From an uncultured bacterium (lineage in GTDB: Bacteria > Patescibacteriota > Minisyncoccia > Moranbacterales > UBA2206): a stretch of 64,000 bases of DNA. Of this stretch, positions 18,815 through 52,316 are shown one piece after another. The position numbers were made by a program, and so were the translations under genes. The notes under the pieces are model-generated. The model was not told the origin of the DNA, did not search any database, and saw only the letters and a list, made by a program, of their open reading frames with translations. Where the stretch lies: assembly GCA_903937035.1 (NCBI GenBank), contig CAIZXS010000004.1, positions 4,693-68,692 on the forward strand, given 5' to 3'. Each line of letters opens with the position of its first letter. Position 1 is the first letter of the stretch.

Positions 18815-21634
18815 ATGAAAGAAAGTTTTGCATTTAATAATCAACCAGCAGCTAAAAAAAATAAAATAATTGAGTTCCCTCAAACTGAGGAAAAAAGAAA
18901 GCAGCTTGAACTTGCTAAGGCAAAATCTGGAATGGCTAGCGGTGAAAAAAAACACATTGGCGTCGATGCAGAAACTGATATGATTAGAAAAAAAGGTGAT
19001 GAGGTTCAAGAAGGTGCTTTCGCGGCTTATCAAGGAGAGGACACGCAGGAAGTGGCAGTCGAGCCAGTTTCAAAAGGCATTGACGCAAAGACGGATCACA
19101 TCAGGAGAGATGCTGATGATATGCAGGAAAATGCTTTCGCAGCTTATCAGGTGGAGGATGCTGAAAATGGGACAAAAACTGATCCAGTTTCGAGAGGTAT
19201 CGATGCGAAGGCAGATATCATTAGAAGAGAGGATGATGAAATGCAAGGAAGCGCTTTTGCGGCCTATCAAGAAGAGGCTGGCGATACTGGCAAGAAAAAA
19301 ACTGATGGTGTTAAGCCTGAAGCAGATATCATTAGAAGAGAGGATGATGAAATGCAGGAGGGTGCTTTTGCAGCTTATCGAGGGGAGGTTGGTGATATTA
19401 TTCCTGCTGGAGAAAAAGAGAAGACTGACGCCAAGAGAGAGGCTCGGAAAGATATGGGCAGAAAAATTGGCAAGAGCATGGAGGAAAAGGACGATGGTCG
19501 GTTTAAGATGGGCGAAGAAAAAGAGTATAGCCCTGAAGAGCAAGAAAAGCTTGGCAAGCTCGAAGAGCTGACGATTTTAGTGGAAGAAAAAAGAAAGGCC
19601 TATGCCGCTGAGGATTATAGGACAACAAATATTTTCACAAAGCTCAAAAGCGTGCTGGGCATGAAGACTGAAAATTTACCGACTGGTGCCAAGGATTCAT
19701 TTGCTTATCAGCAATATCAGGGAGCATTGAATGAGTTGCGAAATTTACAAATCCAGACGCTGCGAGATAAATATGCCAACATGGATAATTTGCCACCAAC
19801 TGAAAAAGCGGCGGCGATGACGGAAATGAAAAAAGAGATGGGCGAGATGGCGACATATTTTGGATTCACCGAGAAACTTGATTTAGCGGGAGCAAGGACG
19901 GATGCGCGAACAGCAGCTTGGTCAGAAACGAAGATGGGAAGATTTGGAGAGAAAGCTTTGAAATGGAGCGCTGAACGGATTAACGAATACCGCAAGTTGG
20001 ATCCAAAAATTAAAATGGCTATTGCGATAACTCTTTTCTCGGTTGGAGGTATCGCCGCATTTACGGGATCAGCTGGTGTAGTGGCTGGTGTGGCTGGTGT
20101 GAACTTAGTTCGCAGATGGCTTGGCGGTGCGGCACTTGGCGCTGGAATAACAGAGGGCATGGAGGCACGTTCAAGGAACAAGGTGAGCAAAAAAGCAGAA
20201 AAAGACAAGCATGAAATGACGGGAAATGTGGAAAGAAGTTTGCAAGAGCAAATTCAGGCGCTTAATGAATATTGTGGTAAGGAAATGAAGACCTATCATG
20301 ATGGTTTGCAAAAAGAGAAGAGTCAAGCGAGAAACAGAAAATTAATTGGAATGAGCGCTGGTGTTGCAGTGGGATCGGGGGCAGCCGGGTGGCTTATCGG
20401 GAAGGGATTTGGTCTCGTGAAAGATGGGGCAACTAGTCTTTGGGAGCATGTGAATGTGGGTGGCGCAGATGAATCTGGAGGGCTAGCTTTTGCTAGTGAA
20501 CCGGCGCCGGTCGAAGTCAGCACGAATCCTATCGACCATGCAGATTCTGCTCATGAAGCGACGCATGCTGGGGCGTCTGATGGTGACAGGTTTGGTTCGG
20601 CTGAGGTGCCAGTGTCAACACATGGGGCCTCTGAGTATGTCGCAGCAAAGGGCGATAGTGTTGAGAGGATAATGATAAATCAGAAAATTGCCGAAGGCAT
20701 GAGCCCTCATGACGCAGAAACATTGGCTCATCAGATAGCGTCAAATCCTGATAATGAAGAAACTCTTAAAGAGCTGGGTAAAATTAAACCGGGACAGAAG
20801 GTTATCGTTGATTGGGAAAAGGGAACTGTTAAGGTGGATCGCATCCTTAGTGCTCATATCAACAATCCAGATGCGCATGCAGAAGGAGCAGGGGTTCATC
20901 AGCCTTCGGTTGAAAAAGCGATTCCGGTTGGGCCAGATGTCAGCGCCACTTCAGAAGCACCAATCTCCGCAGGTGTAGGGCCAGATGTGGAACCTCATTC
21001 CAGTTCGGTTGACAGTGGTGTGGGTACGCAAGAGGGAGTAGAAAATGGTAGTCCGGACTCAAGTGCACAATCACATGCTTCGGCTGATGGAGATCGAATG
21101 CATCAAGAATTAAGCAATGAGTATCAAAAAGTTTACGGCAAGGGTGGCGCTGAAATATTAAGAAATATTCAGTCGATGCCGGAATCTATGCAAGCCCACA
21201 GAGAGGAACTACTAGATCTTGGTAGATTAAAGGTTGCAGCGGAAGAGGCATACACAAGAGCTGTGGGTGATACTAGTGATGTCAGTGGCGCAAGAGCGGC
21301 AGCGCTCGAATCAGCTAAAGTTGGTTATGAAAAGGCTTACGCGAAGGCCTTTAATTCACTTGCCAGAGAGACTTTTGCTGGACAGCAGATTGAAGGTGGG
21401 GTAGCGGGGCTAAAAGCTGTTGGGGCGGCTGAATTTTTGAGTAGCGAAAATGGACAGAGTTCAAAGCTCGTAGAATTGAAGGGCTATGTGGCCAAGCAAT
21501 TTGGAACTAATTTTTCTAATCCACGTCCCGGAGAGAATATGTTTTCTTGGACAACTAGAATGATTAAGTCATCGCTCGAAGCTGGCGGCGTAGAATATAA
21601 AAACTTTAAGTTGTTAGATCGTGGCGGGAAATAG
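18815..21634 (+). CDS. large hypothetical protein with N-terminal tandem 40-aa repeats, central hydrophobic/Gly-Ala-rich segments and acidic C-terminal region
   Basis: 939-aa ORF. Four to five repeats of D..IRR[ED]DDEMQEGAFAAYQ.E. TM-like segments AIAITLFSVGGIAAFTGSAGVVAGVAGV and LIGMSAGVAVGSGAAGWLIG. Confidence 0.7.
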   Translation: MKESFAFNNQPAAKKNKIIEFPQTEEKRKQLELAKAKSGMASGEKKHIGVDAETDMIRKKGDEVQEGAFAAYQGEDTQEVAVEPVSKGIDAKTDHIRRDADDMQENAFAAYQVEDAENGTKTDPVSRGIDAKADIIRREDDEMQGSAFAAYQEEAGDTGKKKTDGVKPEADIIRREDDEMQEGAFAAYRGEVGDIIPAGEKEKTDAKREARKDMGRKIGKSMEEKDDGRFKMGEEKEYSPEEQEKLGKLEELTILVEEKRKAYAAEDYRTTNIFTKLKSVLGMKTENLPTGAKDSFAYQQYQGALNELRNLQIQTLRDKYANMDNLPPTEKAAAMTEMKKEMGEMATYFGFTEKLDLAGARTDARTAAWSETKMGRFGEKALKWSAERINEYRKLDPKIKMAIAITLFSVGGIAAFTGSAGVVAGVAGVNLVRRWLGGAALGAGITEGMEARSRNKVSKKAEKDKHEMTGNVERSLQEQIQALNEYCGKEMKTYHDGLQKEKSQARNRKLIGMSAGVAVGSGAAGWLIGKGFGLVKDGATSLWEHVNVGGADESGGLAFASEPAPVEVSTNPIDHADSAHEATHAGASDGDRFGSAEVPVSTHGASEYVAAKGDSVERIMINQKIAEGMSPHDAETLAHQIASNPDNEETLKELGKIKPGQKVIVDWEKGTVKVDRILSAHINNPDAHAEGAGVHQPSVEKAIPVGPDVSATSEAPISAGVGPDVEPHSSSVDSGVGTQEGVENGSPDSSAQSHASADGDRMHQELSNEYQKVYGKGGAEILRNIQSMPESMQAHREELLDLGRLKVAAEEAYTRAVGDTSDVSGARAAALESAKVGYEKAYAKAFNSLARETFAGQQIEGGVAGLKAVGAAEFLSSENGQSSKLVELKGYVAKQFGTNFSNPRPGENMFSWTTRMIKSSLEAGGVEYKNFKLLDRGGK

Positions 21635-22968: not shown

Positions 22969-25428
22969 ATGGATTACGCATGGCTTATTAGTAGTGTGCT
23001 TTTGGTTTCAGGAATAGCGACTTTGCTTAGTGGCGCTTGGCTTGTTGTAGCAAGCTTTTTGGGTTTTCGCGCTCAGGTCAATCAATCAATGAATCTGGAT
23101 CTTGATGTGATTCGCGTTTCAAAAATCAATAAGAGTGAGGAGGAAAAAACCAAAGAAGGGGAAAATTGGAAAGGCGAGATTGGAGCGATGGAGCAAATGC
23201 TTACGGCTTTTTCCTCAATTAGGGACACGCGGAGTTTTTTCAAAAAGCTGCTCTATGGTTCGCCTGCAATCTCATTGGAGATTGCTAATTCTTCCAAGAG
23301 TGAGGAAATCGTTTTTTTTATTGCGGTGCCAAGAAAATTTAGGGAAAATATCGAAAAACAGATTCATAGTTTTTTCCCATATGCATCTTTGGAAAAGACA
23401 ACTGATTTCAATATTTTTTTTCCTGGGAGTAAGACTGAGGCGTCAATTATTAAGTTGAAAAATAAATTCGCTTTGCCGATTCGTACCTATGAAAATCAAG
23501 AAATGGATCCGCTAAATGCCATTGCTAATGCACTTAGCAAGCTTGATACCGTGAGCGAGGGAGCAGCAATTCAATTAGTCTTGCGGCCAGCTGGAACGGC
23601 TTGGCGCGGAGAAGGGCGGCGCATTGCTCATGAGATGCAGCAAGGGAAAAGACTGCGCGATGTTGATAAATCTTTTATGGCAAAAGTGGGAAGTGAGCTT
23701 GGTTCTGCGGCGCTATCCGTTATCACTCCTACAAAAAAAGACGATCCAATGTCGGGGGATAAAAAAAATGTGCAGCTTACTCCAGAAGAACAAGAGTTGG
23801 TGAAGGGAATTGAAAAAAAAGCCTCAAAAACCGGATTTGAAACTAATATTCGTTTAGTGACGTCGGCTGCGACAAGCGAGCGAGCTCAGGAAATTTTAGC
23901 GCATCTTGAAAATGCTTTTGCGCAATATGAAAATGCGGATATAAATTGTTTCCAAGTGCAAAGAAAGAACAAGAAGGTAATTGCTTTTGATTTTATCTTC
24001 CGCAACTTTAAATCGGAAGAAAAAATGATTCTGGGAGTCGAGGAGATTTCTAGCATTTTTCATATTCCAATCTCCACCACTGAAGCGCCAAAAATTAAAT
24101 GGCTCAAAGCGAACGCTGCTCCACCTCCAGTTGGTATTCCTACTGAAGGGATACTTATTGGTTTTAATGAATATCGCGGAGCAAAAACAGACATTCGCCT
24201 AACAGAGAATGATCGAAGAAGACATCTCTATGCCATTGGCCAGACTGGAACGGGAAAGACAACCATTTTACAGGAAATGGCCAAGCAGGATGCCAAGGAA
24301 GGACGAGGATTTTGTTTTATTGATCCGCACGGTGATGCGATTGAGGATATTTTGGCTTGCATTCCCAAGGAGCGCGCCCAGGATGTGGTCGTATTTGATC
24401 CATCGGATGTTGAGCGGCCATTTGGGCTTAATATGCTCGAATATGACCCAGCCTTTCCAGAACAGATGACTTTTGTGATTAATGAAATGATTGGCATTTT
24501 CGATCAGCTCTATGACCTCAAAGCGACAGGCGGACCGATGTTTGAGCAATATATGCGCAATGCGATGTTTCTTGTGATGAGTGACCCGGATTCAGGATCG
24601 ACTTTAATGGAAATTTCCAAAGTGATGGCGGATGAGGATTTTCGTGCAATGAAACTTTCCAAATGTACCAATCAAACAGTGATAGATTTTTGGACCAAGG
24701 AAGCGGAGAAAGCCGGCGGTGAAGCGGCACTGGCTAATATGGTGCCCTACATCACCTCCAAGCTGACGCCGTTTATTTCCAATGACATGATGCGTCCGAT
24801 TATCTCTCAACAAAAAAGCACGATCAATTTTCGCGATATCATGGATAATAAGAAAATTTTGCTTGTTGCTCTTTCTAAGGGAAAAATCGGGGAAATTAAT
24901 GCGCGACTTTTAGGCATGGTGATTGTGGGAAAAATTTTGATGTCAGCGCTTGCGCGTACAAATATTCCGGAAAATGATCGTGTTGATTTTTATTTATATC
25001 TCGATGAGTTTCAAAATGTCACAACGAATTCTATCGCGCAAATTCTATCCGAGGCGAGAAAATATCGACTCTGTCTTAATATTGCCCATCAATTTATTGC
25101 TCAGCTCAAGGAAGAGATTTCAAAGGCTGTGTTTGGGAATATTGGTTCTATGATTCTTTATCGTGTTGGCCCGGAAGATGCGGAATTCCTAGAGAAGCAA
25201 GTGGCGCCGACTTTTACGCGGAATGATTTGGTGAATGTGGATAATCACAAGGGATTTGCCAAGGTTCTGATTGATGGCGTGCTTACTAAGCCTTTTAATA
25301 TTCAGGGTTTTCCTCCGACCAGAGGTGACCAGGAAGTGGCTAATGCTATCAAGGAACTCTCGCGACTCACCTATGGTCGCGACCGGCACGTTGTCAATCA
25401 AGAGATTATCGCTCGGACGAGATTTTAG
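22969..25428 (+). CDS. membrane-anchored VirD4/TraG/TraD-like (type IV coupling protein family) FtsK/HerA-superfamily ATPase
   Basis: N-terminal TM. HLYAIGQTGTGKTT Walker A, then CFIDPHGDAIEDIL and VVVFDPSD...FGLNMLEY as in T4CP nucleotide-binding domains. Walker B YLYLDEFQNV. Confidence 0.7.
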   Translation: MDYAWLISSVLLVSGIATLLSGAWLVVASFLGFRAQVNQSMNLDLDVIRVSKINKSEEEKTKEGENWKGEIGAMEQMLTAFSSIRDTRSFFKKLLYGSPAISLEIANSSKSEEIVFFIAVPRKFRENIEKQIHSFFPYASLEKTTDFNIFFPGSKTEASIIKLKNKFALPIRTYENQEMDPLNAIANALSKLDTVSEGAAIQLVLRPAGTAWRGEGRRIAHEMQQGKRLRDVDKSFMAKVGSELGSAALSVITPTKKDDPMSGDKKNVQLTPEEQELVKGIEKKASKTGFETNIRLVTSAATSERAQEILAHLENAFAQYENADINCFQVQRKNKKVIAFDFIFRNFKSEEKMILGVEEISSIFHIPISTTEAPKIKWLKANAAPPPVGIPTEGILIGFNEYRGAKTDIRLTENDRRRHLYAIGQTGTGKTTILQEMAKQDAKEGRGFCFIDPHGDAIEDILACIPKERAQDVVVFDPSDVERPFGLNMLEYDPAFPEQMTFVINEMIGIFDQLYDLKATGGPMFEQYMRNAMFLVMSDPDSGSTLMEISKVMADEDFRAMKLSKCTNQTVIDFWTKEAEKAGGEAALANMVPYITSKLTPFISNDMMRPIISQQKSTINFRDIMDNKKILLVALSKGKIGEINARLLGMVIVGKILMSALARTNIPENDRVDFYLYLDEFQNVTTNSIAQILSEARKYRLCLNIAHQFIAQLKEEISKAVFGNIGSMILYRVGPEDAEFLEKQVAPTFTRNDLVNVDNHKGFAKVLIDGVLTKPFNIQGFPPTRGDQEVANAIKELSRLTYGRDRHVVNQEIIARTRF

Positions 25429-25677: not shown

Positions 25678-28167
25678 TTACTGATTTATTGCGAAACTCT
25701 TTATTCCGTTCGTATCTGAGAGGTAAACCAAGTTAGTCTTTTCGCTGACTGAGAAGTTGATTGTATCGGCAATACTCGCATTATAGTATTGGGCGAGGAT
25801 TTTTCCGTCACCATCTAACTTTATTATTCTTGCGTTGGTTTTGTCTAGGATATATAGGTTGGTGCTCGTATTTTGGGCGTAGAGTTTATCTGGTGAGATT
25901 GGTGTTACAGTTTTTTCTGGTGTGTAGGGCTGATTTTTTCCGCGGAATAATTTTAGGATATTTTGGCCGTTTATGACGAAGATATTTTCATTAATGGCGA
26001 GGCTTTTGGCACCGGATAGGTCTAGGGTTTCTTTTAGCCAGGTGCTTTTTTCGCCAAAGCCACCTTCAGCTCTTGGGTAGCGATAAATTTGATTATTATT
26101 TCCATCAAGAAGGTATAGGTAGGTGAGGTAGGTCTTAGCATCAGCTATTTTGGCTTTTTCGGGAAAAGCGATGGAATTAGCTTGGAATTTCCCTGAAGTA
26201 GGCGCGAGAGATGTGACTTTATTATTTTTAACAATAAAAATTAAATTTAAATCGTCCATTCCGAGCGATAATTCCGGATTTTGGAAGTTTGAAGAAAGCG
26301 GAAAACTTTTCTTCGTTTCCAGGTCAATAATTTCTGAGTCTTTTTGGGCGAAAAATTTATCGTTGAGATTTATGATTTGCGCGACGTTTCCGACATAGAT
26401 CTCATTTAATGTTTCAATGCGCTGGACGTTCAAATCATTTTCTAGCGGTAGGATGATTACTGGGATTTCTTCGACAATTTCTGGTTTTTTCTCGACTTTT
26501 CTGTTTTCCAATTTCACAATCCAATATGGGACAACTAGGAGGATGACTAGTGCTGCCAAGGCTGATAGCTTTTGTTTTCGATCAAGGCTTTTTGAAATTT
26601 GTTTTAGACGAGAAAAATTTGGCAGAATTTTTTTTGGCTCAATGAATTGCCCGAGATTTGTGGTCTTTTGCACCGGTGTGGTTGTGATTTTTTGGGGTTC
26701 TGTGTCGGATGAAGTTGGCGAGTTCTCCCAGGGGTATCTTTGATTTTTCGTTTCGTTTTGGTTTTTAATTTTGTGATCGCGCCACTTGTTTTTTAATGAT
26801 TCAATTAGCTGTATGGTGAGATTGGTGGGCTTTCTTAGGATAAAAATTAAGCCATCAGCAGTTTTTTCTTCTAGCCACTCAACTCCTGGCTTTATTTTTT
26901 TTATAAGCGATTCTGCCCTTGCTTTGATTTCTAATTTGGAATATGCATGATTTAATCTTTCTAGTGGGGTGATTCCTGGTTCAGTCTGGTCGAATACTAT
27001 TTTTGATTCATCGAGTTTTGCAGTTTTTTGGTCCAAAAATCCAATTTCTGGAGGAGTTTTTTTAATTTTAATCTGGGAAATTTTAGTGCGGCTCTTCTCC
27101 CAAAATAAGATAGATTGATCTTTTATTGTGCCTGTCGCACTTTTGAGTAACTTTGCAGTTGATTGCCCCAAGTTAGAGAGCTTTTCTTTGAAAAGGGGGA
27201 GTGGGTCAAATTCAATTTTCTCAGCATGATTTTCTTCAGGCGCATTGTGAGTTTCTTTTATATAGATATGTCCAGTTTTTTTATCAACGAAATCTTTTGC
27301 CTCATCTTTGAGCTCTTGGATTATTTCTTGTCTTTCCTTTCTTAAAATATCTTCCTTGGCTCTTTCTTTCTCTAGCATTTTTGGAGAAGATTCTTTTTGA
27401 AAGGCGGTTTGGCTAAAAACATTCACATCTTCCCTTCTTGTAGCTGTTGGGACCTCGGGAAGCTCATCGGTTTTTTCGTCTATATCGATAACGAGAGAGG
27501 CCACCTGGTCAAGTTCGTTGACGAGAGCGGTATTTAGGAACTGGATGAAATTTTCACGTGAAAATTTGAGTGCGCTTTTTTTGATTTCTTCTAGGGAAAA
27601 GATGTCAAAAATTTCTTTTGTAGTGAGCAGTAGTTTGTCATTTTTTTCGATTTTCCCCGAAATGACATCCTGAAAGGTTTTTAAGGGGTTGGAATCGATG
27701 TTTTCATCTTGAATTTCCGTAATCTCGGTGAAGGTATTTCCGCGCAAAAGAAAAGCTGAGGCATTTCCAGTTTGAGAAAGGAGGATGTTATTTTTTTCGA
27801 TTACAGCGCAAATAGCATTGATGCGCCCGATCCAGCCGATATTTTCATGTGTGGCGAGTTTAGCGAGAGCGAGGTTGGCTTTATGCAAGGCTGATTCGAA
27901 GTTTTCAACAGGACCGCGGTTGGCACGGGAAAAATACTCCTTCTTGATGATGGAGATTAGGTAATTTACGACATACGAGGAATCTTCACTTCTGTCGTCA
28001 ATCTGGAAAATTCCCACCAGAGTCCCAAGACTATGATGTGAAATATTTTCTGGCTCTTCGATTAGTATTTCAAGAAATGGTCGACAATCATTTTTTTTGC
28101 AGATTAAAATATCATGAAAGTTTGGTTCCAGATGAGGCATTCTTTTGTCGATTTTTTTTCTGGTCAT
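25678..28167 (-). CDS. large hypothetical membrane protein (possible PP2C/SpoIIE-like N-terminal domain, central TM, C-terminal beta-propeller-like domain)
   Basis: 829 aa. N-terminal GRINAICAVIEKNNILLSQTGNASAFLLRGNTF resembles PPM phosphatase core strands (weak). TM is LSALAALVILLVVPYWIV. C-terminus has repeated ..NQIYRYP..IFVINGQNILKLF..NLYILDKTNARIIKLDGDGK. Confidence 0.6.
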   Translation of the reverse strand: MTRKKIDKRMPHLEPNFHDILICKKNDCRPFLEILIEEPENISHHSLGTLVGIFQIDDRSEDSSYVVNYLISIIKKEYFSRANRGPVENFESALHKANLALAKLATHENIGWIGRINAICAVIEKNNILLSQTGNASAFLLRGNTFTEITEIQDENIDSNPLKTFQDVISGKIEKNDKLLLTTKEIFDIFSLEEIKKSALKFSRENFIQFLNTALVNELDQVASLVIDIDEKTDELPEVPTATRREDVNVFSQTAFQKESSPKMLEKERAKEDILRKERQEIIQELKDEAKDFVDKKTGHIYIKETHNAPEENHAEKIEFDPLPLFKEKLSNLGQSTAKLLKSATGTIKDQSILFWEKSRTKISQIKIKKTPPEIGFLDQKTAKLDESKIVFDQTEPGITPLERLNHAYSKLEIKARAESLIKKIKPGVEWLEEKTADGLIFILRKPTNLTIQLIESLKNKWRDHKIKNQNETKNQRYPWENSPTSSDTEPQKITTTPVQKTTNLGQFIEPKKILPNFSRLKQISKSLDRKQKLSALAALVILLVVPYWIVKLENRKVEKKPEIVEEIPVIILPLENDLNVQRIETLNEIYVGNVAQIINLNDKFFAQKDSEIIDLETKKSFPLSSNFQNPELSLGMDDLNLIFIVKNNKVTSLAPTSGKFQANSIAFPEKAKIADAKTYLTYLYLLDGNNNQIYRYPRAEGGFGEKSTWLKETLDLSGAKSLAINENIFVINGQNILKLFRGKNQPYTPEKTVTPISPDKLYAQNTSTNLYILDKTNARIIKLDGDGKILAQYYNASIADTINFSVSEKTNLVYLSDTNGIKSFAINQ

Positions 28168-28398
28168 ATTGAAAACTAACAGGAGGCTTGTCTATTAATA
28201 TAATTTAGCATAATTTGGCAAAAAATAGAAATAGCGAGGTAGCCAGAATGAATATTTGGAAGTTTTTGCATTTTATGATATTATGTAGTCATAAGAATGC
28301 GCACTTTTTAGGGTGGGGAATTTCTAGGTGAAGTCAAAAAATAATATAACTTATTATTCGGTATGAAGTTGGGGGGCAACTTCTAGTAAAACAAAAAG

Positions 28399-31300
28399 AT
28401 GAAAAAAAAATTAAATGGAGGCTTGATAATCGTGTGTATAGTGTCTTTTATTTTCTCTGGACAGTTGGTAACCGCTGCAGAACCTTCAGCGGACATTTCC
28501 CCCGATAAGGCTTTGGAAACACGGCGTGAGCCAGGAGGGTCTGCAGGAGGGGCAATTGCGTCAGAACAGATGGATGTTGTCGCTGATATCAATTTTCGCA
28601 GCCCCCTTCTTTTAAAGCAAGAAAGTAATAAGCTGGAGCTTTTTTTTCGCCTGGAAAATAATTATTCCAAAAGCGAAGCCGGCATTCGTTATGGCGTTCG
28701 ATTGATTAAGGATGAGACGTTGTATGACGAGAGAGTGTATTCCGCTGATGTGCTTTCAATTGAGGGAAATAGCTCTACTCAAAAAGTGTTTTCTTACCAG
28801 GCTCCAAGTTATCTCGCTGGTGATTTTGAGTTGTGGCTAGTAGCTAAAAATGAAAGTGGTCTGCCGCTAGCTGTTTTAAAATTAGAAAAGCCTATAGCGC
28901 TTAGTGGTTCTGGTGAGTATTTGGAAATCAATACCGATGCTTGCGGATTAAAAATCGAGGGAGGTGGGAATAGTAAGGTTTATTCATTACCTCAAGGGGC
29001 ACCGCTTAAGCCAGAAGAAGACTTGACATTTAGTTGCGAAGTTATCAGTCATTTCAAGGAAGCTGCTTCGATCTATCCTTTGCTGAGTACTTTTAAGTAT
29101 TCTCTCTATGGCAGTTCAGCCGACAATGATCAGCGAGGGGCGGAGCTAGTTCTCCAACCGGGAGAGAAGAAATTTGTCGATTTGACGATTGATAAGCCCG
29201 CCGCGCCTCAGACATATGAAGCGAGGGTTATTTTTTTGAAAAGTAATGCCCTGGCAGTTGTTTCTCGTCCAGTAATTTTGCGCTATGTTGTTTCCGGCGA
29301 AAGTGCCATGATCCAAAAATTAGATTTAGACAAAATTAGTTATCAGAAAGGAGAAATAATTGACGCTACTTTATTGTGGTCTGGTTCAGTGGGCAATTCT
29401 GATGATTCGCACATTGTCAATGCAGCTAGGAAAAAGGTAACAGCTGATTTGGCGATAACCAATCAGGGCAATCAACTCTGCGCGCAAATTCAGGGACAAG
29501 CCTTGGATCAAAATTCAAACACAGCTAAGTTTGAGCTTAAATCTGATATTGATTGCCCTAATCTGAATGTTAAAATAATCCTCAAAGATGAGCAAGGCAA
29601 AGTCTTGGCGGAAAGAGACTTGCATTTTCAAAAAAATAAAATCAGCGAAGGTGGAGCTCAAAAAAGTAGTCCAAATAATATCAAAAAAACAGTGTTATTG
29701 ATAGTATTCATAATTCTGTTATTTTTAGTAATTGCCATTGTTGCTAAAATACTTTTTTCTTACAAAAAAAACAAAACTGAAAATTTATTATTACTTTTGC
29801 TTTTGTTCGGGGCTTTGTTTAATTGGAGATTACAAAATGTGGGAGCTCTTACACTTTCTAAGCCATTTAATAGTTGGGGAGCTTTTAGTTATTCTGTAAA
29901 TTTAAATAAAGGATCAGGAATCTACAACCCAGGAGAGGAGATATCCGTGATATATGACGGAAGTGCAGCCCTCACTGGTTGCGTTAATTATTCTGGTGGG
30001 AATACTACACTATTAGCTGCAACGAACACATCGGGTAGCTGGTCTGGTTTTGGCTGGAAGGGCAATGACCAGTTCACTGATGCGAACGGTTGTACCGTTA
30101 GCAATTTTGGTTCTTGGAGTGCTGGTAATGCGCCATCGTCAAGTGGTGTCATTTCTCTCAAGGCTTGTATAACTGGAGAAGGCTCTGGGGGTGTTGCCGC
30201 TAATTGCTCCGGCACAACATCTGGTGGTGGCAATTTTGATTTAGCGACTGGTGATATTTATTACACGGTTGCCCCTCCCTCCAATCCTACTTGTGAAATT
30301 CATTTTAGCGATAGTTCTTATACTGTCAATAATTGGGGGCCTTTGACTTGGTCGACTTATGATTCAACAGGAGGGACGCTTTATTGTACCGGTCTTTCGC
30401 CGATATTAAATGATCCTAATACTGCTACGAGTTATACTAATTATGGTATTTATTTAAATCAAACAGGTGCGGTTTATTGCACATTTACTCCTTATAATGG
30501 GACAAATGCCGGAACGCCTTGTTATGCTTCTGCGGTAGTTAGCGCGGTAATTCCCACTCCTACGTGTACTGTTTCATTTTCTGACACAGACATTCAAGCT
30601 CCTGGTACGGTATATCTTACCTGGAATTCTTCCAATGCGGATAAGACAATCGGTTCTTGCTCTGGTATTGGAAGTCCGGTTCCAGCGGCTGATTATGGCT
30701 TGGCTTATAGTAATTATCCTGTTGCTTTTGTTGCGACGGATAGTGGGACAGAGACTTGTACTTTCACGCCATATATTGGCGCAACTGCTGGAACTCCTTG
30801 TTCGGCGAGTGTGCTGGTGAGGCCACGAGGGGTTTGTGGTATTGCCAATGGAACATCCTCATGCACGCAGCCGACTACTGGCCTTTGTGATTCATCGAGT
30901 ACTGCTTCTACAGTTGCTGGCTCTGGTCCATGGATTTGGACTTGTGCGGGAGCTAATGGTGGTGGCAGTGTGAGTTGTTCCGCTACTAAGAGTTGCGCGC
31001 CAGCTTCATGTCATGCTTCATTTTCTCCTTCTAGTATAACCACTACATTAGCCACTCCCGCTGCTTCTGTTCTTGCGTGGGATTCCACGGGTGATTCAAT
31101 GACGGTTTCCTGCACAGGGCCAATGCCGATTAGCCCTGCGGTGAATGTTACTAATCCTGCGAGTGGTTCTGGATCTGTTCCCTTTACTGTCGATCAAACT
31201 GGAACAGAGACATGCACATTTACTCCATATAATGGAGCAACTCCAGGCACTACTTGCGAAGCGACCGTTTCCGTTAAGGCTGATGCAGTCTGCGGTTCTT

Positions 31301-32475
31301 CAAATGGAGGCACTTCCTGTTTGGCGCCAACTAGCAATCTTTGCACCTTGGGCACATTGCAAGGAGCTCCGGTGGTATATTCTGGTACATGGTGGGGATG
31401 GACATGCTTGGGATTGAACGGTGGTGCTAATAAGGTTTGTAGTACAATAATAAACTGCACTAGTCCTTCTTGTGTTGCGAATTTTTCACCAACGAGCTTG
31501 ACTGCTCCGGGAACTTCTTATCTTACATGGACTCCTTCTAATGCTGATAAGATGCTTGGTACATGCTTTGGAATTGGCGCAACAATTCCGGAGGGTGATT
31601 ATGGACTGTCCAATACTGTTGGTTATCCTTTCGCTTTTACTGCCTTGCAAACTGGAACAGAAACTTGTACGTTCACTCCATATATGGGAGCAGTAAAAGG
31701 CGCCCCTTGCTCTGCTAGTGTAGTAGTTAATGATACTTGTGAATGCAGCACGATATTCAGCGGTGGGACACCTTGTCCATCGGGATCAACTTGTGACGGT
31801 TGCCATTGTATTCCCGCTACTTCATATACTTGTATGCCAGTAGCTCCACCTGTTGGTACAACAAAGTGTCCCTTGACTAGAGAAACAGGTTTTAGTTCTG
31901 CTCAGCCATGGACGAATCGCGGAACCTTTTCTGTTTGCACCGGAGCGCTTGGAATATGTGAGTATTATATTCCTAGTGGAACATTCGGTTGTAATCCGGT
32001 CGCTCCACCGGTAGGAACAATAAAATGCCCTGGAACGAGAGAGTCAGGTTTTAGCTCTGCTCAACCATGGACTCCCGTGGGAGCAGTTTCTTCTTGCAAT
32101 GGATTGAGTGGTATATGTGAATATTATACCCCAGCTGGAACATTTGGTTGTAATCCAATAGCGCCACCGGCAGGAGCAACAAAATGCCCCGGAACTCAAG
32201 AGGCGGGTTTTAGTTCTTTGCAACCATGGACAAATAGGGTGACTTTTGGTGCTTGCACTGGTGCAAGCGGAGTTTGTGAATATTATTCTTGTCCATCAGT
32301 GCCTCAATGTTACTATCCAACCACTTGCACTCCTGGTATTTGCGGAACTCAAAATGAAGAATGTCTCCCTGTCTCTCCACCTGGATGCGCTGTTCCAGCT
32401 TGCCTCGCAACTTCTTGCACAGGAACGGTGTATTGTCCTTGCAATTCGGGAGGATGGCAGGAGATTTCTCATTAA
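28399..32475 (+). CDS. giant Cys/Thr/Gly-rich modular surface protein (signal peptide, central TM, tandem Cys-bearing modules)
   Basis: 1358 aa. Signal peptide MKKKLNGGLIIVCIVSFIFSGQLVTAAEP. TM TVLLIVFIILLFLVIAIVAKILF near residue 440. Four ~150-aa modules ending ETCTFTPY.GA.GTPC.ASV, two CG..NG.TSC..PT..LC modules, and three 51-aa C-terminal repeats CNPVAPPVGT.KCPGTRESGFSSAQPWT. Confidence 0.8.
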   Translation: MKKKLNGGLIIVCIVSFIFSGQLVTAAEPSADISPDKALETRREPGGSAGGAIASEQMDVVADINFRSPLLLKQESNKLELFFRLENNYSKSEAGIRYGVRLIKDETLYDERVYSADVLSIEGNSSTQKVFSYQAPSYLAGDFELWLVAKNESGLPLAVLKLEKPIALSGSGEYLEINTDACGLKIEGGGNSKVYSLPQGAPLKPEEDLTFSCEVISHFKEAASIYPLLSTFKYSLYGSSADNDQRGAELVLQPGEKKFVDLTIDKPAAPQTYEARVIFLKSNALAVVSRPVILRYVVSGESAMIQKLDLDKISYQKGEIIDATLLWSGSVGNSDDSHIVNAARKKVTADLAITNQGNQLCAQIQGQALDQNSNTAKFELKSDIDCPNLNVKIILKDEQGKVLAERDLHFQKNKISEGGAQKSSPNNIKKTVLLIVFIILLFLVIAIVAKILFSYKKNKTENLLLLLLLFGALFNWRLQNVGALTLSKPFNSWGAFSYSVNLNKGSGIYNPGEEISVIYDGSAALTGCVNYSGGNTTLLAATNTSGSWSGFGWKGNDQFTDANGCTVSNFGSWSAGNAPSSSGVISLKACITGEGSGGVAANCSGTTSGGGNFDLATGDIYYTVAPPSNPTCEIHFSDSSYTVNNWGPLTWSTYDSTGGTLYCTGLSPILNDPNTATSYTNYGIYLNQTGAVYCTFTPYNGTNAGTPCYASAVVSAVIPTPTCTVSFSDTDIQAPGTVYLTWNSSNADKTIGSCSGIGSPVPAADYGLAYSNYPVAFVATDSGTETCTFTPYIGATAGTPCSASVLVRPRGVCGIANGTSSCTQPTTGLCDSSSTASTVAGSGPWIWTCAGANGGGSVSCSATKSCAPASCHASFSPSSITTTLATPAASVLAWDSTGDSMTVSCTGPMPISPAVNVTNPASGSGSVPFTVDQTGTETCTFTPYNGATPGTTCEATVSVKADAVCGSSNGGTSCLAPTSNLCTLGTLQGAPVVYSGTWWGWTCLGLNGGANKVCSTIINCTSPSCVANFSPTSLTAPGTSYLTWTPSNADKMLGTCFGIGATIPEGDYGLSNTVGYPFAFTALQTGTETCTFTPYMGAVKGAPCSASVVVNDTCECSTIFSGGTPCPSGSTCDGCHCIPATSYTCMPVAPPVGTTKCPLTRETGFSSAQPWTNRGTFSVCTGALGICEYYIPSGTFGCNPVAPPVGTIKCPGTRESGFSSAQPWTPVGAVSSCNGLSGICEYYTPAGTFGCNPIAPPAGATKCPGTQEAGFSSLQPWTNRVTFGACTGASGVCEYYSCPSVPQCYYPTTCTPGICGTQNEECLPVSPPGCAVPACLATSCTGTVYCPCNSGGWQEISH

Positions 32476-32508: not shown

Positions 32509-32946
32509 ATGGATAGAAAAAAAATTCTTATTTTATGTTTCGCGCTTTTCATGCTCCTGGTTGGACTTTTTGTGGTAGCTAAAAGCAGCAATAAGAAGGA
32601 TGAAAAAACAAGTTCTCCTCAAAAAATGATTGCTGAAAAAAAAGAAGTTAATGTCTCATCAAAACAAGATGCTGGTAATGTAAAACGAGACGATACCGTG
32701 AGTATTATGGGCAGTATCAGTGCGATTGATGAAAAAACCTTGAGCATAAGACAGATGAGAGAGGCGGTGTCTGTCAACATTAATAGCTCAATCGCCGTGT
32801 CGAATGTTGATCTTGATGGAAAAAAATTGGGAGCTGCTAAATTGTCCGATCTTAAGACGGGTGACTCTGTCAGGGTGACTTATGATAGGGCCACGAAGAA
32901 TGCGACAGAGATTTTCATAACAAGAGTTCAGACGCAAGAGAAATAG
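32509..32946 (+). CDS. hypothetical membrane-anchored/secreted protein
   Basis: N-terminal TM/signal sequence ILILCFALFMLLVGLFVVA, 145 aa. Confidence 0.5.
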   Translation: MDRKKILILCFALFMLLVGLFVVAKSSNKKDEKTSSPQKMIAEKKEVNVSSKQDAGNVKRDDTVSIMGSISAIDEKTLSIRQMREAVSVNINSSIAVSNVDLDGKKLGAAKLSDLKTGDSVRVTYDRATKNATEIFITRVQTQEK

Positions 32947-35639: not shown

Positions 35640-37303
35640 TGACTCCGAAAGATGATGATGTAAAAAAAGAAGAAGCGGTTGCTGCGGAGGGACTTCGGCA
35701 GAATATTTTGCGTGAGGCGCCGAAAACTGTTGCGGGCAGTCTTGTTAATATGCTTCCCAAGGAAGTTGCGGAGAAATATAGCATGATGGTTTTTGACAAG
35801 GTAGGAGATGTTTTGAAGGTGGCAATGGCTGATCCAGAAGATGCGCAAGCCTTGAATACTTTGAATTTTGTAGCGGAAAAAGAGAGGGCCAGAATCGAAA
35901 CTTATGCGGTTTCGCAAAAAGTATTTGCTGATTTATTTGCTTTCTATAACGAAACGAACGAAGCACTAAAGGAAGCAGTTGATTCTTTTGAAGATGAGAA
36001 GGATCAATTGGCGATTGAGGATAGTAATAATGATTCACTGGGAAAGAAGAAGGAGGCGGAAGTGTTGAAAGATGCTCCTGTTACGAAGTTGGTCGAGGTG
36101 ATCATCAGCCATGCTGTAGAGGGAAAGGCGAGTGACATCCACATTGAACCGATGGACAAGGATTATCGCGTGCGTTTTCGAGTGGACGGCGTGTTGCATG
36201 TTAGTTTGATTTTTCCAATTGAGATTGGTCCGGTGGTGATTTCTCGCATAAAGATTTTGGCTAATTTAAAAATTGATGAAAAGAGAAAACCGCAAGATGG
36301 TCGGTTCCGACTGAATTTTAACAAAAAAGATATTGACTTTCGCGTCTCATCCTTGCCTGTTGTTGGTGGAGAAAAGATTGTAATGAGAATCTTAGATAAG
36401 GATAGCGGCACAAGTAGCATTGAGAATCTTGGACTCGTGGGGATGGCAAAACATGATATTAGCGTAGCAATTCATGAGACATACGGGATGATTTTGATGA
36501 CTGGGCCGACTGGTAGTGGAAAATCAACCACGCTCTACACTCTTTTGAAAATTTTGAATAACGAGGAGCGCAATATCATCACACTGGAGGATCCGGTGGA
36601 GTATTTCATTGAAGGACTAAATCAAAGCCAGATCAAGCCGGAAATCGGCTATACTTTTGCTTCAGGTTTGCGAACTGTTTTGCGTCAAGATCCCAATGTA
36701 ATTATGGTAGGAGAAATTCGTGACGCGGAAACGGCAGAACTGGCGGTTCACGCCGCTCTCACAGGACATTTGATGTTTTCTACGTTGCATACGAACACGG
36801 CGATTGGCGCTATTCCGCGTCTAATTGACATGAAAATTGAGCCATTCTTGCTTTCTTCGTCACTTCGAATGGTGATTGCTCAACGTTTGGTGAGGCGAAT
36901 TTGTGAAAAATGCAAAAAAGAGATTACGGTTTCTCCTGTGGTCAGCGGGGGGATAGCGGAAAAAATAAAGAATATCAACGAGAAAGAATTGGAAAGCTAC
37001 GGAATAAAGTTGGAGGATGGACTTAAATTTTATCATGGCGACGGATGTGACGCTTGTAATGGAACGGGGCTCAAAGGGCGCGTGGCAATCTATGAGGCAG
37101 TGCCGGTGACAGAGGAAATTAGGAATATCATTATCGAAAAAAGAGGCAGCGAGGAATTGATCAAAAAAGAACGCGATCGGATGGGAGTGATTACAATCGA
37201 GCAAGATGGCATCTTGAAGATTATCCAAGGTCTCACAACGATCGAAGAGGTGGAACGAGTAACGGAGTGTAACTTCACAACTCTGACCGAGGAAAATGAC
37301 TAA
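35639..37303 (+). CDS. pilB: type IV pilus assembly ATPase PilB (GspE family)
   Basis: N-terminal GspII_E_N-like domain, Walker A LMTGPTGSGKSTTLYT, Asp/His boxes, C-terminal tetracysteine CEKC...CDAC. Confidence 0.95.
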   Translation: MTPKDDDVKKEEAVAAEGLRQNILREAPKTVAGSLVNMLPKEVAEKYSMMVFDKVGDVLKVAMADPEDAQALNTLNFVAEKERARIETYAVSQKVFADLFAFYNETNEALKEAVDSFEDEKDQLAIEDSNNDSLGKKKEAEVLKDAPVTKLVEVIISHAVEGKASDIHIEPMDKDYRVRFRVDGVLHVSLIFPIEIGPVVISRIKILANLKIDEKRKPQDGRFRLNFNKKDIDFRVSSLPVVGGEKIVMRILDKDSGTSSIENLGLVGMAKHDISVAIHETYGMILMTGPTGSGKSTTLYTLLKILNNEERNIITLEDPVEYFIEGLNQSQIKPEIGYTFASGLRTVLRQDPNVIMVGEIRDAETAELAVHAALTGHLMFSTLHTNTAIGAIPRLIDMKIEPFLLSSSLRMVIAQRLVRRICEKCKKEITVSPVVSGGIAEKIKNINEKELESYGIKLEDGLKFYHGDGCDACNGTGLKGRVAIYEAVPVTEEIRNIIIEKRGSEELIKKERDRMGVITIEQDGILKIIQGLTTIEEVERVTECNFTTLTEEND

Positions 37304-37332
37304 GTATATTTTTTATTTTTAATTATAATTTT

Positions 37333-37722
37333 ATGGAAGAGCAGAAAAAGAAGATCATGATTATCGAAGATGACTATTTTGTTATGGACATCTATCACAC
37401 AAAACTTACACAGTCCGGCTTTGATGTGATTAGTGCAAATAACGGACTTGACGCGTTAAAAAAGTTACAAGAAGAAAAACAAATTCCCGATTTGATTTTG
37501 CTAGACATTATCATGCCCTATCTTGGCGGATTGGAAGTTTTGGAGCGGATCAAAGCCGATGAGCAATTAAAAAGTATCCCAGTAATTTTGCTCACCAATT
37601 TGAGTCAAAAAGCTGAGATTGATAAGGGAATGGGGTTGGGAGCAAAAGATTATTTAATCAAATCTCATTTCACGCCATCAGAAGTTTTGGAAAAAATAAA
37701 TTTACTCATTGGTAATGCTTAA
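37333..37722 (+). CDS. single-domain response-regulator receiver (CheY/PilH-like) embedded between pilB and pilT
   Basis: IEDD, LLDIIMP (phosphoacceptor Asp), LLTNLS and KDYLIK are all canonical. Confidence 0.85.
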   Translation: MEEQKKKIMIIEDDYFVMDIYHTKLTQSGFDVISANNGLDALKKLQEEKQIPDLILLDIIMPYLGGLEVLERIKADEQLKSIPVILLTNLSQKAEIDKGMGLGAKDYLIKSHFTPSEVLEKINLLIGNA

Positions 37723-37728
37723 ACATTT

Positions 37729-38799
37729 ATGTTACGAACTGAACAAAAAATAAAAAATTTGCTAAGAATTGCCGCGCAACGCGGGGCTTCAGATTTACAT
37801 TTGGTGGTTGGTCGCTATCCGACCTATCGAATTGACGGAAAACTCATCTCGCTCAATCAAGATGAGATTATTACGCCTGAGGTTACGCGTGAAATTTGCG
37901 ATGTTGTTTTGAATGAAGAGAAAAAAAAGCAACTGGAAAAGGAAGGGCAAGTTGACCTGTCCTATAATTTTGAAGACAAGGTGCGTTTTCGTGTCAATGC
38001 TTTTTTTCAACAGGGCTATACGAGCATGGCATTTCGTCTGATTTCCAAAGATATCCGGACACTAGAGGAATTGGGTGTACCAGAAATTCTTTATGATTTC
38101 ACCAGAGTTTCCCAAGGATTATTTTTAATGGTGGGGCCGGTGGGACATGGAAAGTCGACGACGCTAGCAGCCATGATTGATGACATTAATCATAACCAAG
38201 AAAAGCATATTTTGACCATTGAAGATCCAATCGAATATGTCTATGAACAAGATCGTTCAATCATCAATCAAAGAGAGGTCTACCAGGATACGAATTCTTT
38301 TCAATTGGCACTTAAGGGGCTGTTTCGGGAAGATGCCAATGTGGTGCTTATTGGTGAGCTGCGAGACCTGGACACGATTTCTGCGGCAATGACGGCTGCT
38401 GAAACAGGGCATTTGATTTTTGGGACACTTCACACTAATGATGCTCCGCAAACTATTGATCGGATCGTAGATGTCTTTCCGGCTCATCAGCAAAATCAAG
38501 TTAGAGCGCAATTGGCCAGCGTGCTTTTGGCCGTTGTCTCTCAGCGCTTGATTCCCAGAGTTGATGAGGGTCGGTCTCCAGCGGTCGAGATTATGATTAA
38601 AAATCACGCGGTGGAAAACTTGATTCGAGAGAATAAAAGTTATCAAATCGGCAATGTGATTGAAACAAGTTCACAAGAGGGGATGGTGACAATGGACCGT
38701 TCACTGGCAGATTTAGTTAGGCGGGGCTTGGTTTCACTTGAAATTGCTTCGGCCTATGCAAGGGACACAAAAAATTTCGAAACGCTGCTCAGATACTAG
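37729..38799 (+). CDS. pilT: twitching-motility/retraction ATPase PilT
   Basis: LMVGPVGHGKSTTLAAMI Walker A, 356 aa, lacks the GspE N-domain. Confidence 0.9.
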   Translation: MLRTEQKIKNLLRIAAQRGASDLHLVVGRYPTYRIDGKLISLNQDEIITPEVTREICDVVLNEEKKKQLEKEGQVDLSYNFEDKVRFRVNAFFQQGYTSMAFRLISKDIRTLEELGVPEILYDFTRVSQGLFLMVGPVGHGKSTTLAAMIDDINHNQEKHILTIEDPIEYVYEQDRSIINQREVYQDTNSFQLALKGLFREDANVVLIGELRDLDTISAAMTAAETGHLIFGTLHTNDAPQTIDRIVDVFPAHQQNQVRAQLASVLLAVVSQRLIPRVDEGRSPAVEIMIKNHAVENLIRENKSYQIGNVIETSSQEGMVTMDRSLADLVRRGLVSLEIASAYARDTKNFETLLRY

Positions 38800-50452: not shown

Positions 50453-50464
50453 TACCACTTTTGT

Positions 50465-50980: not shown

Positions 50981-51112
50981 TTTTTTTGTTTGAATCCTCC
51001 TGCGCTGAAGCTTCGGCGGACGAGCTAATATTGAGTAAATTTTCTGTGGCTTGCCACAAATAAAGTACAGAACTCTCCCTGTGGTTAATGCCCTTAATTA
51101 AAAAAAGATAAA

Positions 51113-52287: not shown

Positions 52288-52316
52288 GAAGATTTTTAGC
52301 AATAATTTTTGAAAAA

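Follow-up and report, generated by a model that had tools for sequence, protein, structure and literature searches.

The gene described here occupies positions 28399 to 32475 on the forward strand of a 64,000-nucleotide (nt) stretch of DNA (the window), taken from contig CAIZXS010000004.1 (positions 4,693 to 68,692) of an uncultured bacterium of the Moranbacterales, a lineage of the Patescibacteriota. We read its product of 1358 amino acids (aa) as a fused precursor in two parts, a membrane-anchored base followed by a secreted stalk that carries an internal signal peptide, belonging to an uncharacterised family and perhaps forming a structure for binding or attachment at the cell surface; we assign this reading a probability of about 0.7. 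The features on which it is built are given below, one per line; a downward arrow marks a predicted cleavage site, and related loci on other contigs are denoted L003, L008 and so on.

28399..32475, + strand: whole open reading frame (ORF), precursor of the fused two-part surface protein, 1358 aa plus stop (ORF list, homologs)
28399..28479, +: N-terminal Sec signal peptide, aa 1-27, MKKK, a hydrophobic core and VTA↓A (hydropathy, sequence, close-homolog alignment)
28579..28908, +: base beta-sandwich 1, aa 61-170 (AlphaFold2, AF2, predicted local distance difference test, pLDDT, 84-95, all strands; generic fold matches of immunoglobulin (Ig), fibronectin type III (Fn3) and macroglobulin (MG) type)
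28921..29292, +: base beta-sandwich 2, aa 175-298, in which C182 and C213 are invariant across the family (AF2, invariant columns)
29296..29628, +: base beta-sandwich 3, aa 300-410, in which C361 and C386 are invariant across the family (AF2, invariant columns)
29689..29763, +: transmembrane segment 1 (TM1), aa 431-455, predicted anchor of part 1, out-to-in (Kyte-Doolittle mean up to 3.52; predicted helix 426-454; the N-half of split homologs ends just after it)
29764..29784, +: short cytoplasmic loop, aa 456-462, YKKNKTE N, putatively serving part 1 as stop-transfer and the internal signal peptide as n-region, with a non-conserved run of eight A (A8) (loop charge, K/R columns 449-453)
29785..29847, +: h- and c-regions of the predicted internal signal peptide, aa 463-483, LLLLLLLFGALFNWRLQNVGA (conserved A483, family logo, split-gene homology)
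29848..30285, +: X domain, aa 484-629, a beta-sandwich and the first domain in part 2 (AF2 pLDDT 51-82; motif V.L.K..Y.PGE.I in the family consensus; within the 5' region that is 97% identical in L007)
30286..30546, +: A0 module, aa 630-716, Ig-like beta-sandwich ending YCTFTPY...C.AS (motif/repeat analysis; AF2 pLDDT about 60-80)
30559..30822, +: A1 module, aa 721-808 (motif/repeat analysis, AF2; 60% aa identity to A3)
30829..31002, +: B1 module, aa 811-868, six Cys, CG..NG...C..P...LC...W.WTC..NGG..C (motif; 43% aa identity to B2; AF2 pLDDT < 40)
31003..31278, +: A2 module, aa 869-960 (motif/repeat analysis, AF2)
31285..31464, +: B2 module, aa 963-1022 (motif/repeat analysis, AF2 run)
31465..31734, +: A3 module, aa 1023-1112 (motif/repeat analysis; AF2 pLDDT 63-83)
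31735..31824, +: D module, aa 1113-1142, small Cys knot-like CEC...C..G..CDGC.C (sequence; found in 8 of 11 homologs censused)
31825..32289, +: three C repeats in tandem, aa 1143-1297, each with four Cys and a CEYY end (Tandem Repeats Finder, TRF, period 159, 2.5 copies, 76%)
32290..32454, +: E module, aa 1298-1352, terminal Cys-rich segment before the tail (sequence; Cys-rich context before the tail conserved in the family)
32455..32472, +: C-terminal tail W-Q-E-I-S-H, aa 1353-1358, local variant of W-x-E-[VI]-x-P-COOH (common to the complete close homologs and the L007 paralog)

The key to the protein is its centre. A preliminary description of this DNA, made from the letters alone, had placed a transmembrane helix at about aa 440, which corresponds to the strong segment located at aa 431-455 by the Kyte-Doolittle scale, and had noticed a short poly-Leu stretch after it, namely the seven consecutive leucines of aa 463-469. 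In three unrelated loci (L015, L017 and L019, each represented in 4-5 contigs), the two halves of the protein are encoded separately. The gene for the N-half stops there after TM1 and a K/R tail, the last residues before the stop codon being ...AAYFRHKKNQNES, ...IIKKIRLSKNT and ...IIRKKIILEKNV. The gene downstream begins with an ordinary N-terminal signal peptide (MNLKNFKILLFVVAFLILLPAGSAKA↓DSF..., MKKSLYIFSVISFVFLGIILSFLYSAQDADA↓SG..., which runs MKKSLYIF...SAQDADA↓SG, and MFKITTKSIKTPLLFIFALFVFFAAPQDVKA↓VTF...) and continues into the X-domain motif (...NKTTYAPGESII...); in L017 its product terminates ...KWEEIFPW, which is the family tail. Since the split lineages carry the homologous segment as the N-terminal signal peptide of a separate gene, the central hydrophobic pair of the window protein is read as a gene-fusion junction, in which TM1 would anchor part 1 and the poly-Leu stretch would be the signal peptide of part 2. 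A central membrane segment followed by a disulfide-rich C-terminal half had been regarded as unusual; the split, overlapping gene pairs provide its explanation. The overlaps themselves measure 11 nt in L015 (7325-7335), 4 nt in L017 (1390-1393, ATGA) and 8 nt in L019 (1670-1677), in different frames and at A-rich junctions, and are compatible with the probable translational coupling of the two genes.

The sequence of the junction has the attributes of a Sec signal peptide, namely a basic n-region, an h-region of 7-15 hydrophobic residues, a polar c-region, uncharged small residues in positions -3 and -1 and a residue other than proline at +1. Aa 456-483 present them in order as KKNK, LLLLLLLFGALF and NWRLQNVGA↓L: the leucines follow YKKNKTEN and the segment then reads ...FGALFNWRLQNVGA↓LTLS. 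The predicted signal peptidase I cut falls between A483 and L484 (29847 and 29848), and the mature part 2 would start with LTLSKPFNSWGAF... All 12 close homologs share the succession of signal peptide, conserved region of about 400 aa, transmembrane segment, K/R-rich loop, short hydrophobic stretch, small-x-small motif and Cys-rich region, with VGA↓L, VEA↓L, VRA↓I, AEA↓L, ANA↓A, VDA↓I and TEA↓A as variants of the motif. A483 is invariant in these proteins and conserved in at least 90% of the distant ones, though the membrane segments themselves vary. Both hydrophobic segments are present in 139 of the 146 best profile matches longer than 520 aa, and the loop between them contains a median of 4 K+R and 0 D+E in these 146 representatives. 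The family logo displays K/R at five consecutive positions, a hydrophobic core of 14 residues and a polar stretch, and then, around the predicted cut, A, V, T or S at -3 (94/95), a charged or polar residue at -2, Ala at -1 (86/92) and Thr at +2 (72/80). Such a profile is the n-h-c organisation with the (-3,-1) signature expected of a signal peptidase I substrate.

The ORF is uninterrupted over the length that the preliminary description had reported, and it is one genuine intact gene rather than an assembly artefact, because identical copies exist in independent assemblies and full-length homologs have the same layout. The identical protein is encoded on at least four contigs, which include two different Joint Genome Institute (JGI) metagenomes; close homologs at 85, 63 and 43% identity span 100% of its length, and the fused layout is kept in 12/12 close homologs and 139/146 distant representatives. 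It had been feared that a frameshift near 29.7 kb might have split or joined two genes. The A8 run in the loop codons would offer a place for such an error at an A-rich junction, and base and stalk are truly separate genes in some lineages; against this stand the copies in different samples, the predominance of the fused layout, and the L008 ortholog, whose A-run is interrupted (AAGAAAAAC) and which is likewise fused. In-frame downstream starts would, moreover, yield a leader devoid of n-region. The chance that an error produced the fusion is next to negligible, and the suspected frameshift can be dismissed. Slippage at the A8 run as a source of phase variation was also considered and rejected, since L008 has an interrupted run, others lack it, and 23 such A-runs occur in the AT-rich window.

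Part 1 starts with the signal peptide that had already been proposed, the N-terminal hydrophobic segment being found at aa 5-28 by hydropathy. AF2 models aa 61-410 at a pLDDT of about 90 as three consecutive all-beta domains, followed by two helices. Four cysteines (C182, C213, C361 and C386) are invariant across 47-50 aligned distant members, whose identity is no more than 21-29%, and the window protein matches the family base, whose motifs are SEAGIRYGV, NESGLPL and GESATIQKLDLDK. Foldseek comparison of the base with the PDB returned only generic tandem beta-sandwich arrays (MG domains of alpha2-macroglobulin and complement, transglutaminase barrels, fibronectin type III domains) at template modelling scores (TM-scores) of 0.15-0.23 and about 10% identity.

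Part 2 is extremely rich in cysteine. The protein contains 65 Cys, 5 of them in aa 1-440, none in aa 441-490 and 60 in aa 491-1358, which amounts to 6.9% of the 875 residues that follow the membrane segments; the enrichment noted at the outset is real and the estimate of about 90 was too high. Four A modules of about 88 aa, 40-60% identical in aa sequence, have their (E)TCTFTPY ends at aa 693, 785, 937 and 1088, with start-to-start distances of 279, 456 and 453 nt. The four copies had been recognised and described as modules of about 150 aa with a 450-bp period, and this period exists only where a Cys module of about 58 aa (B) is interleaved between A modules. The two B modules, correctly seen as interleaved, are 43% identical in aa sequence and carry their CG..NG...W.WTC motif at aa 813-849 and 965-1003. 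The three C-terminal repeats ending CEYY are confirmed in number; they measure 53 aa (159 nt) instead of 51 aa, and are 63-70% identical in aa and 76% (TRF) or 69-72% (global alignment) in nt, below the initial figure of about 80%. These repeats are far beyond chance expectation (TRF score 420; aa identity of 40-70% within module families). In the 875 aa after the membrane segments, AF2 produces beta-sandwiches of moderate confidence for X and A0-A3, with generic fold matches to the MG arrays of complement C5, the GhpA neck, an S-layer protein and cadherins. A Pfam and NCBIfam scan of the whole protein gave nothing at cut-off (best Pfam E-value 0.013, on the transmembrane region), a PDB sequence search gave no match at E of 1 or below, and none of the Ig-like adhesin domains of Pfam (CARDB, Big_2/5, PKD, fn3) exceeded its gathering score, the only trace being Big_5 at E=0.53. 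The prospect that the modules would turn out to be EGF, laminin or another known domain was thus not borne out by any curated model, and the general portrait of a modular, Cys-rich, extracytoplasmic protein holds.

By profile similarity, the gene belongs to a large, uncharacterised surface-protein family of Parcubacteria-type bacteria in the candidate phyla radiation (CPR). An exhaustive HMMER search with a profile built from an alignment of the constant region (aa 1-485), run on clusters at 50% identity, retrieved 1,694 cluster representatives at E of 1e-3 or below and 900 at 1e-30 or below, most of which align over the entire profile through the membrane segments. The window protein follows the family order, with TM1 at aa 431-455, the K/R loop at 456-462, the hydrophobic stretch and small-x-small motif at 463-483 and X at 484-629. 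Homologs and related loci bear lineage names that all belong to Candidatus Moraniibacteriota, and the names attached to more distant members include Candidatus Campbellbacteria and "Parcubacteria group". Module content varies: A-, B-, C- and D-motif counts differ among homologs and some carry other Cys-rich modules instead. Pfam domains detected in 47 scanned members were TSP1 (4), InlB B-repeat (3), PKD (2), Big_2 and Big_7 (2 each) and CARDB (1), and no enzymes.

The family is organised with constant ends (base, X and tail) and a variable middle. Locus L007 (10001-17219) comprises two tandem paralogs with a small conserved gene between them. The paralogs are 97% identical in nt over their first 1830 nt, which cover signal peptide, base, membrane pair and X, and are unrelated afterwards; both nevertheless end CPCNSGKWQE.. 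despite the unrelated middle. This pattern suggests either duplication with replacement of the 3' part or gene conversion maintaining uniformity of the constant 5' region.

The big gene evolves faster than its neighbours, under relaxed constraint and in a mosaic fashion. In comparison with L008, neighbouring products are 88-98% identical (75% for a small 145-aa gene directly downstream) and the big protein 84% in its N region and 86% in its C region. With L003 the neighbours again reach 88-98% (83% for the small gene, 68% for a pilin and a 565-aa gene), and the big protein falls to 71% in C and just 51% in N, where the pil genes are 89-98% identical. Nei-Gojobori dN/dS ratios (nonsynonymous to synonymous substitution rates) against L008 are 0.19 for the big gene and 0.22 for the small one, and 0.02 for a VirD4-like gene, 0.03 for PilB, 0.05 for PilM and 0.09-0.10 for PilN and an 829-aa gene. 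The synonymous rate (dS) against L008 is uneven, at 0.10 in X, 0.32 in the base and about 0.69 in the neighbours; together with the divergent N-domain of L003, this indicates recombination within the big gene, with signals in the N-domain and in X. On its own, the dS of the X segment (29848-30285), about seven-fold below that of the flanking genes, suggests a recent recombinational exchange between the Moraniibacteriota populations of the window and of L008. The C-terminal repeats had been put forward as a recombination hotspot. Their number is stable at 3/3/3 in the close relatives compared, and identity between orthologous copies (76-85%) equals or exceeds that between paralogous ones (63-74%), so that concerted evolution or copy-number change at this place was rejected.

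The last residues of the protein form a second trait of the family. The window protein ends ...NSGGWQEISH and carries the family tail, the complete close homologs all terminate CPCNSGxWQE[VI].., and W-x-E occurs within the last 12 residues of 78 of 154 family representatives, further ones ending in aromatic-x-E-hydrophobic variants. The consensus is C..C...(N/G)-W-(K/R/Q)-E-V-x-P-COOH. Over 144,380 family residues, W.E[VI].P was found 57 times at the terminus and never internally, for expectations from composition of 0.003 and 0.5. A DNA pattern scan of metagenome contigs for W-K-E-V-A-P followed by a stop yielded at least 120 stretches. Among the matches listed, no base or X domain was found in 111 ORFs ending WKEVAP or elsewhere in their loci, about one third of the ORFs are tiny, as chance predicts for a 32-bit pattern, 18 of 21 full-length proteins possess Sec signal peptides, and Pfam hits are limited to CARDB, fn3 and Big, with no NCBIfam model. 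Recurrent classes of low GC content end D-x-x-x-x-FP..L..R[KR]..WKEVAP, KYL..LNSLLGSP..SWKEVAP or, in a Cys-rich context, ...C.GT[KR].C..NWKEVAP. Examples from L021-L140 are L033:2788-4188, L051:10088-12163, L063:1438-3078, L072:4718-6787, L137:1689-6158, L083:407-5539 and L061:9132-11879, and two examples carry the names Parcubacteria group and Candidatus Moranbacteria. A class 2 of GC content 63-69% and without Cys was set aside as probably the coincidental C-terminus of an unrelated high-GC family. We also discarded the ideas that the tail is private to the base and stalk family or always accompanies an N-half gene, given the other families that carry it and at least 120 loci without N- or X-domain, and that tail-bearing genes are linked to type IV pili, pilin-like genes lying near only 4 of 32 loci. 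The tail is, on this comparison, a putative strictly C-terminal tag common to unrelated secreted proteins of the clade.

Membrane topology can be inferred from the positive-inside rule and the distribution of cysteines. The N-terminal Sec signal peptide would export the base (part 1, aa 1 to about 459), TM1 would stop the transfer and leave the K/R loop inside, and the internal signal peptide would re-initiate export of part 2 (aa about 460-1358), placing X and the Cys-rich stalk outside, where disulfides can form. Signal peptidase I is predicted, at somewhat better than even odds, to cut after A483 and thereby to separate base and stalk. After such a cleavage the base would stay anchored in the membrane and the stalk would be free, retained possibly through X, the tail or the small membrane protein encoded downstream. 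As to function, we tentatively favour, at a little less than even odds, a surface-displayed binding or attachment structure whose variable stalk would be the interacting end, held at the membrane by the base. This guess is drawn from the episymbiont clade, the variable distal region and the adhesion-type domains of relatives. Every cultivated member of the Patescibacteria lives attached to other microbes, and little is known of the way in which hosts are recognised and held (PMC11623550). The candidate host-attachment adhesin of the preliminary description is therefore plausible, in view of the lineage and of the adhesion or binding domains in relatives, and is retained as a conjecture.

The immediate surroundings of the gene contribute two further features.

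28176..28204, +: promoter-like site CTAACA-17-TATAAT (10/12 consensus matches), within the 231 nt between the gene and its divergent upstream neighbour
32509..32946, +: small gene of 145 aa, conserved along with the big gene, with an N-terminal transmembrane segment and a C-terminal region of about 70 aa (homologs directly downstream in L003, L005, L007 and L012)

In a scan for promoter consensus, the number of sites did not exceed the shuffled expectation, which makes such sites weak evidence. Of all neighbours, only the 145-aa gene accompanies the family in the different Moraniibacteriota contexts (window, L003, L005, L007, L012). Since a gap of 33 nt without terminator separates it from the big gene, and 160 nt with promoter-like sites, including TGGTATAAT, lie between it and pilM, the two genes are probably co-transcribed as a unit distinct from the pil operon. 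The type IV pilus (T4P) cluster, encoding PilM, PilN, PilO, PilB, PilT, PilC and pilins, does lie downstream as had been stated, but not immediately, the 145-aa gene standing between.

Several points weigh against the proposed reading. A transmembrane hairpin that is never cleaved would give the same topology, and AF2 draws two helices there at low pLDDT; signal peptidase I was not identified within the window, which is a part of the genome; pLDDT stays below 50 for B1, B2, D, C1-C3 and E, allowing no fold or disulfide assignment; the dN/dS of 0.19 is below 1, so that positive selection is not seen gene-wide; and the tail of the window protein, ...WQEISH, lacks the terminal proline common in the wider family. 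The hairpin would be a permanent pair of membrane helices, so that a single chain of 1358 aa would display base and stalk from one anchor, the A-x-A/T motif being a structural element at the start of X. The helices are drawn at 426-454 and 459-480, the conserved Thr at +2 and hydrophobic residue at +3 would suit a first beta-strand, and the predominance of the fused form means that covalent linkage may matter. The core of the second segment, however, has only 12-15 residues before a polar c-region, a usual arrangement in cleaved signal peptides, whereas transmembrane helices are generally longer; the near-invariant small residues at -3 and -1 are a signal peptidase I signature for which there is no obvious structural reason; and in the split genes the corresponding homologous segment is a genuine N-terminal signal peptide. 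We regard an uncleaved hairpin as unlikely.

The function is open to two other interpretations, of which the first, that of an envelope or S-layer-type protein serving as surface layer or spacer rather than in partner binding, we hold to be rather improbable. The family is very widespread, its base is conserved and membrane-anchored, and its tandem Ig-like arrays have fold matches that include an S-layer protein and the shafts of mastigonemes and grappling hooks. A highly variable, mosaic distal region and tandem paralogs that differ only distally fit better with partner recognition or antigenic diversification, and adhesion-type domains in relatives speak for the same. Still less probable is a T4P accessory, functional component or cargo of the adjacent pilus, for instance a pilus-associated adhesin or platform protein. 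The pilMNOBTC operon and pilins do start 630 nt downstream, an arrangement kept in L003 and L008; a PilM-N fusion is found a few kb upstream of the family gene in L007, and a pilin-like gene follows the split pair in L017. Yet the pil operon adjoins the big gene only in the sub-lineage of the window (L003, L008), so that adjacency is a trait of this sub-lineage and not of the family, and no pil genes were found near the family gene in L005/L006, L012 and L015 by tblastn with the Pil proteins of the window and a pilin-motif scan of the available sequence. The ORF has no class III (prepilin) signal either: there is no N_methyl hit, the only pilins in the motif scan lie at 40170, 40633 and 50546, and the leaders are of Sec type only. 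The separate promoter-like site of pilM, the pairing of the big gene with its small neighbour and the scarcity of pilin-like genes near the other tail-bearing loci point the same way, and CPR genomes hold many pilin genes, which makes chance adjacency likely. The fused precursor with an internal signal peptide remains the preferred reading.

The rest of the window is an ordinary chromosome, encoding GlmS, RecO, MurA, MreB, DNA ligase and GatA. Divergent from the big gene lies an 829-aa ORF (25678-28167, - strand) without Pfam match, containing a hydrophobic stretch around aa 525-545 and repeat-like in its C-terminal half; it adjoins the big gene in L003 and L008 (88-90% identity) and not in more distant contexts. 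Upstream (22969-25428, +) is a VirD4/TraG-like coupling ATPase (TrwB_AAD_bind, TraG-D_C; DUF8128 in the precomputed annotation) with no other recognisable type IV secretion genes nearby; it is extremely conserved, at 98% aa identity and dN/dS 0.02 against L008. A 939-aa ORF (18815-21634, +) has neither a Pfam match nor similarity to the base and stalk family, and both it and the 829-aa ORF were rejected as paralogs of a 937-aa gene of L007 for want of similarity. A second T4P-related block (49667-55187, +) lies 9 kb from the main pil operon, with glycosyltransferase and methyltransferase genes between them. It comprises the PilD prepilin peptidase (49667-50452), small ORFs of which at least one bears an N_methyl pilin motif (51685-52287), a pilin-like motif at 50546, and a 956-aa ORF (52317-55187) without Pfam match that could be a pilus-tip or accessory protein. 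A response-regulator receiver gene of about 129 aa is inserted between pilB and pilT in L002 (9003-9392) and L003 (10846-11235), and the window has the same gap (37303-37729, +).

The general kind of protein is already known. Large, Cys-rich extracellular proteins that vary between strains were proposed for attachment in Peribacteria and Peregrinibacteria in 2016 (PMC4736985). They are alike in size, signal peptide, very high Cys content and lack of functional annotation, and those genomes contain T4P genes too; compared by description only, they were not reported to have a constant triple-Ig base, an internal signal peptide, a split/fused pair or a W-x-E-V tail. Ig-like adhesins of monoderms (MSCRAMM/Sdr, Big_2/invasin-like, CARDB/PKD arrays) also project a distal region on beta-sandwiches arranged as beads on a string, with module or repeat variation and relaxed constraint. 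Here, in contrast, there is no Pfam sequence match and no LPXTG/sortase signal, the anchor is a separate N-terminal base with a transmembrane helix, and small disulfide-rich modules, unusual for those adhesins, are interleaved. The Aureispira GhpA neck, the MG arrays of complement and alpha2-macroglobulin and an archaeal S-layer protein share the tandem beta-sandwich shaft (Foldseek E 1e-6 to 1e-9), at TM-scores of 0.1-0.2 and 7-13% identity, which is generic fold likeness and no evidence of homology or of a common function. For the junction, internal signal peptides in bacterial fusion precursors have a precedent and are rare. The Bradyrhizobium japonicum cytochrome b/c1 precursor FbcH reportedly contains an internal signal sequence whose cleavage was shown experimentally by Thony-Meyer and colleagues in 1991. 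There too, one ORF encodes a membrane-anchored part and then an internal signal sequence exporting the downstream part, giving two proteins that have separate genes elsewhere; the proteins are unrelated, a respiratory complex as opposed to a surface protein, and cleavage is only predicted in our case. What appears to be new is the specific, very large family whose triple-Ig membrane base is constant, the occurrence of split and fused forms, which reveal a mid-protein hydrophobic pair as anchor and putative internal signal peptide, the constant/variable organisation of paralogs, and a terminal tag extending beyond the family.

We know of no processing enzyme for the W-x-E-[VI]-x-P tail. It recalls LPXTG/sortase, PEP-CTERM/exosortase, PGF-CTERM, GlyGly-CTERM and MYXO-CTERM signals in being a short, strictly C-terminal motif on otherwise unrelated secreted proteins of one clade. 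Known C-terminal sorting signals consist of a motif, then a transmembrane helix, then a basic tail (bioRxiv 10.1101/2023.06.07.544157), whereas this tail ends the protein with no hydrophobic segment and matches no NCBIfam or Pfam model. The window protein itself carries no sortase (LPXTG) or exosortase-type signal, with no hydrophobic segment after aa 483 and no NCBIfam sorting-domain hit. As a long shot, the triple-Ig base could be the receptor of the W-x-E-[VI]-x-P-COOH tail, both together making up a new surface-display system of Parcubacteria. The base would then capture tail-bearing secreted proteins at the surface, non-covalently or through an enzyme, among them the stalk released by signal peptidase and the unrelated families; the fusion in one ORF would guarantee 1:1 delivery, and the displayed cargo would gain diversity from tandem paralogs that differ in the stalk and are identical in the base.

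The base and stalk family offers concrete candidates for host-contact proteins in CPR bacteria, together with a profile for their annotation. Fusion of the base and stalk genes would have created an internal signal peptide, and the existence of natural split and fused forms makes its processing directly testable. The C-terminal tail, which resembles a sorting or retention tag devoid of transmembrane segment, is the most promising lead: if functional, it would point to a new mechanism of surface retention in a clade whose envelope biology is almost unexplored.

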